From positions 98,470 to 162,469 of IMG/VR virus record IMGVR_UViG_3300042549_004948: 64,000 nucleotides of DNA; one strand, given 5' to 3'. Position numbers and translations under genes: made by a program. The stretch's first letter is position 1; each line of letters starts with the position of its first letter. A model generated the notes under the pieces. That model ran no database searches, was not told the DNA's origin, and saw only the letters and a program-made list of their open reading frames with translations. This document shows, one piece after another, positions 10,740 through 12,226 of the stretch. The stretch is from a virus.

Positions 10740-10997
10740 TTATTTATTTTTAGTGTTCCAATATAATTCTCTGACTTTAGATCCTAGCTCTTGATCATTA
10801 GGTGTATTATATACCAATTCCTCGCTGATTGTGATTAGTCTTCTACTTTTTTCTTGACTACACATATGAGATTGATAACATCCTTGGCCTGAGCCTTCTA
10901 CGTATCCTATTCTCAAATCAATGTGATCATTAAATCTATATGGGGTATCTTTACCACATATTACGCATTTTTCTATGGGATTGTTGTCTGTATTCAT
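10740..10997 (-). CDS. hypothetical Cys-containing protein
   Basis: CVIC, RIGYVEGSGQGC; operon packing. Confidence 0.6.
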   Translation of the reverse strand: MNTDNNPIEKCVICGKDTPYRFNDHIDLRIGYVEGSGQGCYQSHMCSQEKSRRLITISEELVYNTPNDQELGSKVRELYWNTKNK

Positions 10998-11012
10998 AAC
11001 TGTTTATTTTAG

Positions 11013-11096
11013 TACCTAAGATGGGATTCGAACCCATACGGGCTTTCAGCCCATTTGATTTTAAGTCAAACGCGTATACCGTTCCGCCACTAAGGT
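11013..11096 (-). tRNA. tRNA-Leu(UAA)
   Basis: Anticodon arm TTTGA-CTTAAAA-TCAAA, variable stem GGGCT-GAA-AGCCC, T loop TTCGAAT; one acceptor-stem mismatch; CCA not encoded. Confidence 0.92.
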
Positions 11097-11102
11097 ATAA
11101 AG

Positions 11103-11258
11103 CTATCAGAGAAGGATTCGAACCTTCACGCAGTGATTCGGTAAGAGACAAAATAGCCGGCTTGTGGTCAACCCATATCCATTTACCTATTTCAAACTCT
11201 GCGCCCGCGAGACGGGCGGGTGTGTCTGCCATACTCTAGAGTGTTTCACCATCTGATA
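11103..11258 (-). ncRNA. tRNA-like RNA with 76-nt variable arm and GUC at the anticodon position
   Basis: Acceptor TATCAGA/TCTGATA + G, D stem GTG/CAC, anticodon arm CCCGC-CCGTCTC-GCGGG, T arm GAAGG-TTCGAAT-CCTTC. Confidence 0.8.
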
Positions 11259-11336
11259 ATCTATTATCTAAATATAATACTAAATCTTCTAATTTATTAA
11301 ATAGATCTTTTGAGTATATTAATTAATTTGTAAGAG

Positions 11337-11407
11337 ATGTTCCTTTAGGATTCGAACCTAAACTAAGTGGACCAAAACCACTTGTGCTACCGTTACACCA
11401 AGAAACA
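11337..11407 (-). tRNA. tRNA-Gln(UUG)
   Basis: TGTTTCT/AGGAACA acceptor; AGTGG-TTTTGGT-CCACT anticodon arm; TTAGG-TTCGAAT-CCTAA T arm. Confidence 0.92.
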
Positions 11408-11411
11408 GTGT

Positions 11412-11443
11412 AAAAAAATGGGCAGTTCAATTAAGAACCGCCC
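11412..11443 (-). terminator. intrinsic terminator downstream of tmRNA
   Basis: GGGCGGTTC-TTAATT-GAACTGCCC followed by a T7 tract. Confidence 0.75.
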
Positions 11444-11533
11444 TGTTAAAAGACTTAGCCTGGGGCAGAAAACGTAGGGATCTGTGCTAAATACTATTAT
11501 CTATAATTATCTGTAAATTCAGATAATTTTTTG

Positions 11534-11976
11534 TGGACCTGGAGAGATTCGAACTCTCGTCTCCGATAGAGACAATAATACTAACGTATCACATGCTTAG
11601 TACTGCTTGCGCTGCACCGTACATCAGTTGTTTAATAGGTACAACTAATAAAACCTTGATAGCACGGCTTCGCCCCCTGTATACCGTGTCGTAGAATGCT
11701 TGAGGTACGCCTCAACGTAGCTAGGGAGCCACTCATTCCCACAGTCCTTATTTAACGAGTTGATCGTGAATACTCGGAGTAGTTCTGTTCCTAGGTTACT
11801 CACCCGATGCGGACTAAGCTGCTACAGCTAGGTCGGCGCCTACGAAGTCCATAAGGTCTTCGAAGGTGAATGAAGATAATTCTTCAGCGTTTATTGTTTA
11901 GTATCTTCTAAGGCAGTATACTCAAATGCCTGCATGTAGTATTACCTCAACAACCGGATCAATTCCAGTCAGGCCC
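11534..11976 (-). ncRNA. ssrA: tmRNA
   Basis: 5' GGGCCTG pairs with 3' CAGGTCC-A with G3.U Ala determinant; T arm GAGAG-TTCGAAT-CTCTC; GCATG helix; ATAAAC resume context, then tag ORF 11888-11814 AEELSSFTFEDLMDFVGADLAVAA*. Confidence 0.93.
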
Positions 11977-11989
11977 ATAAGTTAAAGAA

Positions 11990-12226
11990 CTACACACTAT
12001 ATTCAGGAGTTGGTTGTTGCGCCCAATAAGCTTCTTCAAGCTCTAGAGTCCATCCGTCTTCTGCTTCTGAAAGTACTGCAAATCTATCATGCGAGAAAGA
12101 TGTATATCCTTCTGGTACTTCTATTTCTTCTAGTAGATAATTACCGTTAGGAGTTAAAGCTGTAACTGTATACGTAGCTCCTTCTGTCAATAGACCTTCA
12201 TGTCCTTTGATACACATAACTTGCAT
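11990..12226 (-). CDS. hypothetical protein
   Basis: Likely start MQVMCIKG at 12226; the upstream extension overlaps a hairpin. Confidence 0.55.
   Translation of the reverse strand: MQVMCIKGHEGLLTEGATYTVTALTPNGNYLLEEIEVPEGYTSFSHDRFAVLSEAEDGWTLELEEAYWAQQPTPEYSV

Follow-up and report, generated by a model that had tools for sequence, protein, structure and literature searches.

In the 64,000-nt stretch of viral DNA analysed here, referred to below as the window, two ordinary tRNA genes flank a 156-nt segment that has the shape of a tRNA with a variable region of 76 nt. The question raised by this locus is whether the segment is a tRNA gene that decayed or acquired an intron, or the gene of a structured RNA in its own right and, if so, what such an RNA may do for a phage. 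The source virus record in IMG/VR spans 162,469 bp at 33% G+C, and DNA near-identical to the window is present in lake-water metagenomes.

Genomic context of the tRNA-like gene

The gene lies on the minus strand (11258-11103), with RNA position 1 at 11258 and the discriminator base G73 at 11103. Its neighbours on the same strand are a tRNA-Gln(UUG) (11336..11407) and a tRNA-Leu(UAA) (11012..11096), which begins 6 nt past G73, both identified by ARAGORN and Rfam, as well as a phage tmRNA of 446 nt (11531..11976, minus strand; Rfam RF00023, 56 bits), located 273 nt upstream of the RNA and followed on its 3' side by a terminator-like hairpin found in a terminator scan (11420-11443). An exonuclease gene is encoded 860 nt downstream of the RNA gene. 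Apart from the giant-armed RNA and the tmRNA, the phage has two tRNAs only, both reading A-ending codons. On the tRNA cluster, ARAGORN calls tRNA-Leu and tRNA-Gln and not the 156-nt RNA, for which Rfam 15 returns no match either, RF00005 included, even at E-values up to 10.

A promoter scan upstream of the RNA returned one sigma-70-like site, which is below chance expectation and carries no weight. When metatranscriptome contigs were compared with positions 10900-12100, one of 152 nt was informative, with 34 nt matched in the arm of a relative; such contigs match over small shares, their ends are not visible and DNA carry-over is possible. Most of the RNA has no contig over it, to which no weight attaches. 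Conserved parts of the tmRNA were matched by metatranscriptome contigs from four studies, mostly at less than 95% identity, so that these contigs stem from relatives.

Architecture of the window copy

The acceptor stem is formed by UAUCAGA (11252..11258, minus strand), which starts with U1, and UCUGAUA (11104..11110, minus strand), which contains A72; its seven pairs are perfect (TATCAGA/TCTGATA), six of them covary among homologues, and G73 is followed by a C, CCA not being encoded. U8 and G9 come after the 5' strand and lead into the D arm (11222..11249, minus strand), which has a 3-bp stem (GUG at 11247-11249 with CAC at 11222-11224), changing in homologues from U11-A24 to C11-G24 and from G10-C25 to A10-U25, and G18 G19 at 11229-11230. 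The D loop is enlarged by the perfect palindrome ACTCTAGAGT (RNA ACUCUAGAGU; 11233..11242, minus strand), which precedes G18 G19; this insert is optional, and many family members do without it. The anticodon-type arm (11204..11220, minus strand) combines a covarying stem, CCCGC/GCGGG, with the loop CCGUCUC (11209-11215), i.e., C33, G34 U35 C36, U37 and C38. The T arm GAAGG-UUCGAAU-CCUUC (11111..11127, minus strand) has a canonical T loop, and three of its five pairs covary. The 7-bp acceptor, the 5-bp T stem and a T loop of the type UUCRANY make this the cloverleaf of a canonical tRNA, and the 3-bp D stem, the long helical variable arm and a Levitt pair of the A15-U48 type, as read from sequence, place its body in class II. 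Among the pairs of the window copy are A2-U71, U3-A70 and U11-A24.

The variable arm (11128..11203, minus strand; 76 nt) consists of three helices, an internal loop, further weak pairing and an apical domain. P1 (GCAG 11199-11202 with CUGC 11130-11133), P2 (UGA 11192-11194 with UCA 11134-11136) and P3 (GGUAA 11183-11187 with UUACC 11140-11144), all on the minus strand, each show both-side changes in homologues. The internal loop AAUA/GAA is placed between P2 and P3; readings of it as a K-turn, a loop E or a UAA/GAN motif were each considered and dropped. The apical domain holds the motif GGGUUGACCAC (11164..11174, minus strand), probably GG[GUUGA]CC and then AC, and by comparison this invariant element is followed by a short A linker, the self-complementary arm tip AGCCGGCU (11155..11162, minus strand) and the 3' strand of the arm. 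The motif is present in 24 of 26 homologues located through the neighbouring protein, independently of the motif itself, and is carried by the bacterial copies described below as well. Since it is invariant, pairing inside it lies beyond a covariation test. A pairing of ACCAC with GUGGU of positions 7-11 was rejected, as covariation backs the canonical D stem, and the idea that GUU or UUG of the GGGUUGACC motif serves as a second anticodon is unsupported.

Much of this had been foreseen in the original prediction: the perfect acceptor and T arms (GAAGG-TTCGAAT-CCTTC), the D loop enlarged by a palindrome, the loop CCGTCTC with C33 and a pyrimidine at 37, and the 76-nt variable region at 11128-11203 are all borne out. 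Of the helices proposed for the arm, those corresponding to P1 (CGCAG/CTGCG) and P3 (GGTAA/TTACC) covary, and the apical pairing GGTTG/CGGCT with ACCA in its loop is not supported.

Comparative evidence for a structured RNA

The folding energy of the single RNA sequence is no better than that of shuffles (z = -0.89), and the case for the RNA therefore rests on comparison. From 80 related phage loci, collected through the exonuclease gene downstream of the RNA, blastn retrieved 24 full-length homologues with 68-89% identity, and a covariance model added two. For 20 distinct copies aligned with MAFFT, RNAalifold predicts a cloverleaf with a long variable arm, comprising 38 pairs, 25 of which show changes on both sides. 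Paired cells make up 98.4%, compared to 39-51% after a shift of the 3' strands by 1-3 columns; none of 500 shuffles reached the observed values for paired cells, both-side-changed pairs or cells, or covariation score, and only one of 500 did so for further pair types. Compensation is seen in every helix that varies, including the three arm helices.

The 156-nt RNA is thus almost certainly the product of a functional gene, with a class II (Leu-like) body, a GUC loop of a non-decoding type and a structured 76-nt arm, as judged by its conservation. Compensatory changes in 25 of 38 pairs mark it as a real RNA gene rather than a decayed or intron-bearing tRNA, as had been argued from the window alone. 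That the segment is a decayed or element-disrupted tRNA, or one spliced to an ordinary tRNA-Asp, would fit its place inside a tRNA cluster and the silence of ARAGORN and Rfam; the arm, however, covaries and has been retained in phages and bacterial chromosomes alike, its excision would still leave a non-canonical loop with U37, and neither a flanking duplication nor a splice structure is seen in the sequence, which leaves this reading a negligible probability.

A family shared by phages and Bacteroidota

A pattern combining the arm motif and the T arm was run on IMG/VR contigs and on a collection of species-representative genomes. The viral scan gave at least 120 matches; in 80 loci fetched from these, on contigs as long as 321 kb, about 75 copies scored above 70 bits (73-179) with the covariance model R1, which scores the window copy at 159 bits. 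The genome collection also gave at least 120 matches and, among the matches listed, nearly all are from Bacteroidota and R1 scores range from 58 to 119 bits, with carriers in Chitinophaga, Pedobacter, Spirosoma, Aquirufa, Flectobacillus, Arcicella, Larkinella, Saprospiraceae and Cytophagaceae. The bacterial copies, one or two per genome, sit amid housekeeping genes (feoB, frr, pyrH, trmB-like) and not in prophages. In an even sample of the phylum, the RNA is carried by 13 of 151 genomes. Homologues retain the long arm, which measures 72-91 nt in phage copies and is longer in some bacterial ones.

Neither the phage copy nor a bacterial copy matches a described family in Rfam, and a full-text literature search found no description of the RNA family. 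A blastn query with the 421-nt cluster recovered from GenBank phages only the tRNA-Gln and tRNA-Leu on either side; the sole record matching near the T arm, MT836074.1, has an ordinary tRNA-Ser(UGA) there. Viral contigs contained no exact match to a 22-mer.

From this distribution, the RNA in the window is almost certainly the phage version of an uncatalogued family of RNAs that Bacteroidota encode on their chromosomes, and the earlier view of it as a phage invention gives way to that of a phage copy of a cellular family. The family is widespread and strongly structured, spans at least four Bacteroidota orders and at least 120 viral matches, and is absent from Rfam.

Other tRNA-like RNAs were observed in the same material. 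Many bacterial genomes contain a shorter tandem paralogue of 108-120 nt, with the same acceptor end and GUCUC loop and a short arm without GGGUUGACCAC (L231:5234-5341; L238:4041-4160; L282:6171-6286). A 187-nt phage variant of 35% G+C (L022:1866-2052) has a cloverleaf, the loop UAGUCUC and a retained arm base, together with a 30-nt D-loop hairpin, and likewise does without GGGUUGACCAC. Related phages encode further tRNA-like RNAs missed by ARAGORN (L030:1035-1145; L036:5002-5099; L039:5012-5109), among them one of 111 nt with the loop CAGACAA and another of 98 nt in which AGAC-GAAA-GUCU replaces the anticodon arm; in each of the two, the hairpin of the D loop presents eight loop nucleotides that include a 6-nt palindrome (G-CGUACG-A or G-CAUAUG-A), resembling a kissing loop. 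The tRNA clusters of related phages also include Leu-like sequences of tRNA shape, 96-115 nt long and irregular in the middle (L043:2399-2494; L034:2227-2341; L004:3016-3116), which score 19-32 bits with R1. In two loci of related phages, ARAGORN predicts tRNAs with four-base anticodons (aaat, aaaa) adjoining tRNA-Met or tRNA-Gln (L036:4846-4919; L039:4129-4202). Finally, a 3.6-kb contig of an uncultured Bacteroidetes MAG, probably phage DNA in a bacterial bin, carries a copy of the phage type (L217:1998-2167) that has a hairpin in its D loop and a GCUUGCAAGC palindrome.

Identity elements and decoding

Conservation was counted over 170 distinct members, 76 from phages and 94 from bacteria. 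At the acceptor end, U1-A72 is kept in 75/76 phage and 94/94 bacterial copies, G2-C71 in 71/76 and 94/94, U3-A70 in 68/76 and 93/94, and G73 in all of them (76/76 and 94/94). The loop of the family reads N32-N33-G-U-C-U-C, with G34 U35 C36 in every full-length member and C38 in nearly every one. Position 37 is U in all except three members (two phage copies with CAGUCAC and one bacterial copy with CUGUCCC), while position 33 is U in 74/94 bacterial copies and C in 16/94, with A and G also occurring in the family. U33 and a purine at 37 never occur together in a member (0/170). GatCAB substrates of the tRNA-Asn and tRNA-Gln type have no extra D-loop nucleotide U20A; in this family, with a D loop of the class II type that often has an insert, the numbering of position 20A is ambiguous. 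G10 is unconserved, being A in 69/94 bacterial copies.

The strong determinants of aspartate identity are G73, G34, U35, C36 and C38 (PMC9976931), all of which are found in the window copy and conserved throughout the family. At the first base pair, bacterial tRNA-Asp strictly retains G1-C72 (PMC9976931), and here the family departs from it with U1-A72, as does the window copy at the second pair with A2-U71 instead of G2-C71. [quoted passage not shown] In line with this, in one carrier genome, the Chitinophaga genome G001, tRNA-Asp has G1-C72 and both tRNA-Gln have U1-A72. Because the aspartate determinants and U1-A72 are conserved together, the RNA joins the anticodon and discriminator of an aspartate tRNA to an acceptor end of the kind that GatCAB acts on. 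In the same genome, a tRNA-Asn(GUU) (C1:5912845-5912950, minus strand; L404) seems, by hand reading, to have an irregular acceptor, with U1/G72 and C2/A71.

The original prediction had instead named the long arm and G73 as SerRS determinants. Serine identity in E. coli depends on a long variable arm, G73, G2-C71 and C11-G24; the window copy has the arm and G73, but it pairs A2-U71 and U11-A24. What the family keeps appears to be the AspRS set plus U1-A72 rather than a serine element, and the bases of the anticodon loop are invariant although SerRS ignores them, so their conservation points elsewhere and a serine identity is less likely.

As to translation, decoding tRNAs carry U33 together with a purine 37 in a loop of seven nucleotides; the window copy has C33 and U37. 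Over the 170 members, any base may stand at 33 and U stands at 37 with few exceptions, so the RNA is very unlikely to decode, which agrees with its first description as a non-decoding tRNA mimic. The contrary reading, that it is an isoacceptor of tRNA-Asp that tolerates a giant arm and reads GAY as Asp, or as Asn if amidated, could appeal to the 7-nt loop with GUC at 34-36 and to the prevalence of U33 in bacteria, and tRNAs engineered to bear an aptamer hairpin in an extended variable arm are reported to remain able to translate (PMC7590224). Yet U37 is nearly invariant where decoders have a purine, position 33 takes all four bases without U33 and a purine 37 ever meeting in one member, hosts already possess normal tRNA-Asp genes, and U1-A72 would expose the RNA to GatCAB and thus cause Asp-to-Asn errors. 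We regard a decoding role of this kind as highly improbable.

Association with an AsnC-like regulator and asparagine genes

In E. coli, asnC is divergent from asnA. An AsnC-like gene is likewise found divergent from the RNA in 59 of 75 assessable bacterial loci, its start lying 125-350 nt (median 159) from the RNA 5' end; the loci without it are mostly from Saprospiraceae. The best NCBIfam model for this regulator is AsnC of the E. coli type, matched over its full length with 180 bits, which is well above the next model (72 bits) and below the curated NCBI cut-off of 227 bits. Where a genome has no copy of the RNA, its AsnC-like orthologue adjoins HemD, saccharopine dehydrogenase, amidohydrolase and other unrelated genes, and in none of the four sampled Bacteroidota that have asnA does an AsnC-like gene lie beside it.

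All 13 carrier genomes encode gatB and asnS, and none encodes asnA. With gatB in 126 of the 151 sampled genomes, its presence in 13/13 speaks for compatibility only, and asnA is rare in the sample (4/151). In 10 of 13 carriers, genes of the AsnB family score above the curated cut-off, and such genes are not depleted, so a replacement of asparagine synthetase by the RNA is not apparent, although the sole AsnB-family gene of one carrier (G139) lies inside a glycosyltransferase cluster. A search of the phage's own genes found no Asn synthase and no gatB, so the phage must lean on host enzymes for either activity. Asn makes up 6.65% of residues in the long ORFs of the phage, compared to 4.92% in the bacterial loci.

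Palindromes specific to the phage copies

At the tip of the arm, directly after GACCAC, a perfect even palindrome of at least 6 nt is found in 69 of 75 phage copies and one of at least 8 nt in 56 of 75, the corresponding proportions in shuffles being 27% and 6.6%. In the bacterial copies, arm-tip palindromes remain at shuffle level. The phage palindromes comprise 26 different sequences, e.g., AGCCGGCU, GCUUGCAAGC, GCGCGC, GUGCAC, GCUAGC and GCUUCCGGAAGC. Those of six nucleotides are incapable of forming a hairpin, and close relatives differ by symmetric double changes, as in AGCCGGCU and GCGCGCGC, a combination that would be expected if one molecule pairs with another. The inserts in the D loop show a similar enrichment, with 31 of 45 phage inserts being perfect palindromes of at least 6 nt (22% in shuffles); as the remaining ones are ordinary hairpins, a hairpin stays a fair reading of this insert. 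The restriction of palindromes to phages suggests that these RNAs may pair with themselves, and makes them a simple natural test case for RNA self-pairing.

Such a pattern might also indicate that the phage copy supplies no metabolite at all and is a self-pairing, dominant competitor that sequesters AspRS, GatCAB, Tgt or a tRNA-cleaving defence nuclease. Besides the palindromes at both sites, the frequency of C33 in phage copies (40/76, vs 16/94 in bacteria) would agree with this, and phage tRNAs that counter anticodon nucleases exist. On the other side, the whole identity set is under constraints like those in hosts, beyond what a decoy needs, we know of no nuclease specific for tRNA-Asp, and the host origin and the link to AsnC favour a metabolic role. 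We consider this competitor role unlikely. The decoy for anticodon nucleases that was first proposed is weakened in the same way, because bacterial chromosomes carry the same RNA beside an AsnC-like regulator; among the options then listed, an amino-acid donor fits best, and the RNA is probably an aminoacyl carrier, of an aspartate rather than a serine type.

A possible role in asparagine supply

We tentatively propose that the RNA is an aminoacyl carrier held off the ribosome, on which aspartate is turned into asparagine and which has been borrowed by phages; to this we give somewhat less than an even chance. The host AspRS would charge the RNA with aspartate, reading G73, G34, U35, C36 and C38, and the host GatCAB could then convert the bound aspartate to asparagine, as pair 1-72 is U-A, as in tRNA-Asn and tRNA-Gln, and not the G-C of tRNA-Asp. 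U37, the free position 33 and the giant arm would block reading of the product at Asp codons, and asparagine would be released or handed on from the RNA, although we know of no step by which it could be released from such an RNA. In bacteria, the gene may be expressed divergently from the AsnC-like regulator, as asnA is in E. coli, so that asparagine is made when AsnC signals need. An AT-rich and Asn-rich phage carrying its own copy would obtain more asparagine during infection by means of host enzymes, and the arm-tip and D-loop palindromes would probably let two RNAs pair, perhaps, more speculatively, in a way that fits the dimeric AspRS. The unconserved G10, a minor aspartate determinant, and A2-U71 in the window copy are points against this proposal, as is the conserved arm motif, for which it offers no binding partner.

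A related and rather doubtful possibility does without GatCAB: the RNA could be a chargeable tRNA mimic in an amino-acid-responsive circuit, as an aspartate donor or as a sensor or regulator whose arm docks a protein, and the phage copy would tap or perturb that circuit. It draws on the same conserved aspartate determinants and the same link to a regulator of the Lrp/AsnC family; moreover, GGGUUGACCAC and the internal loop are conserved although no pairing role is visible for them, which would suit a site of protein binding, and AsnB-family genes coexist with the RNA. It leaves unexplained, however, the invariance of U1-A72 in the face of the strict G1-C72 of bacterial tRNA-Asp, and no candidate partner gene was found beside the RNA in bacteria or phages.

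Returning to the carrier of aspartate and asparagine, a borrowed cofactor that raises the asparagine supply could plausibly count as an auxiliary metabolic gene of the phage. The most complete version of the proposal, in which a dedicated non-decoding cofactor with a hybrid identity (anticodon and discriminator of tRNA-Asp, U1-A72 end of the tRNA-Asn/Gln type) has asparagine made on it by AspRS and GatCAB under AsnC-type control, with phage versions that self-assemble, seems to us unlikely as a whole. If true, it would be the first case of an amino acid being synthesised on an RNA that does not itself serve translation as a substrate. A carrier role would extend tRNA-dependent amino-acid synthesis beyond ribosome-bound tRNAs, and would mean that a cell keeps a separate RNA cofactor for metabolism and that phages steal an auxiliary metabolic RNA gene. 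Even if it is wrong, the family stands as a finding, with a clear regulatory partner and testable determinants.

Comparison with known RNAs

The RNA belongs among tRNA-derived, non-decoding RNAs and is uncatalogued. Its body is closest to tRNA-Leu and class II tRNAs in general (RF00005), with which it shares the 7-bp acceptor and 5-bp T arms, U8, A14, G18 G19 and the canonical T loop, as well as a 3-bp D stem in the Leu-like context GGUG...GGCAGAC and a variable arm between the anticodon and T arms; indeed, R1 cross-matches tRNA-Leu genes at 30-41 bits. It differs from them in an arm of 72-91 nt (phage copies) instead of about 13-21 nt, with conserved motifs of its own, and in U37, the free position 33 and the discriminator G73.

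Judged by its determinants, the RNA stands between tRNA-Asp and tRNA-Asn. With tRNA-Asp it shares the five strong determinants (PMC9976931) and, in nearly all members, G2-C71, while U1-A72, U37, the class II body and the giant arm set it apart. With the tRNA-Asn that is served by a non-discriminating AspRS and GatCAB (PMC1635274) it shares U1-A72, G73 and G34-U35, and by analogy with it the RNA could in principle be a substrate for AspRS and then GatCAB. The differences are C36, as in the Asp anticodon, with which a discriminating AspRS would suffice, the giant arm, the separate gene beside an AsnC-like regulator, and an amidated product that would be unusable in translation without miscoding.

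For the self-complementary elements, the nearest parallel is the dimerisation initiation site (DIS) of HIV-1, a loop-loop dimerisation site with AAGCGCGCA. As in the DIS, phage copies show variable, perfectly self-complementary 6-12-mers, flanked by A, in an unpaired region. Precedents for RNA-only assemblies are found in the phage-associated RNAs ROOL and GOLLD (PMC12286853) and in manA (bioRxiv 10.64898/2026.07.01.735769). Pairing between molecules is putative for the elements described here, the D-loop inserts of phages are in part ordinary hairpins, and the feature is lacking in bacterial copies.

The use of a tRNA shape beyond ordinary decoding is familiar from tmRNA, YrlA and the cell-wall tRNA-Gly of Staphylococcus, some of which are carried by phages. 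From tmRNA, the RNA is distinguished by U3-A70 in place of G3-U70, an anticodon-type arm, a helical and covarying variable arm and the absence of a tag reading frame. In YrlA, the 5' and 3' ends form a Ro-binding stem and the tRNA-like module is internal, whereas the ends of the giant-armed RNA form an acceptor stem. Neither the phage nor the bacterial copy has an Rfam match to tmRNA or YrlA. Compared with the Staphylococcus tRNA-Gly, the giant-armed RNA has a large added domain.
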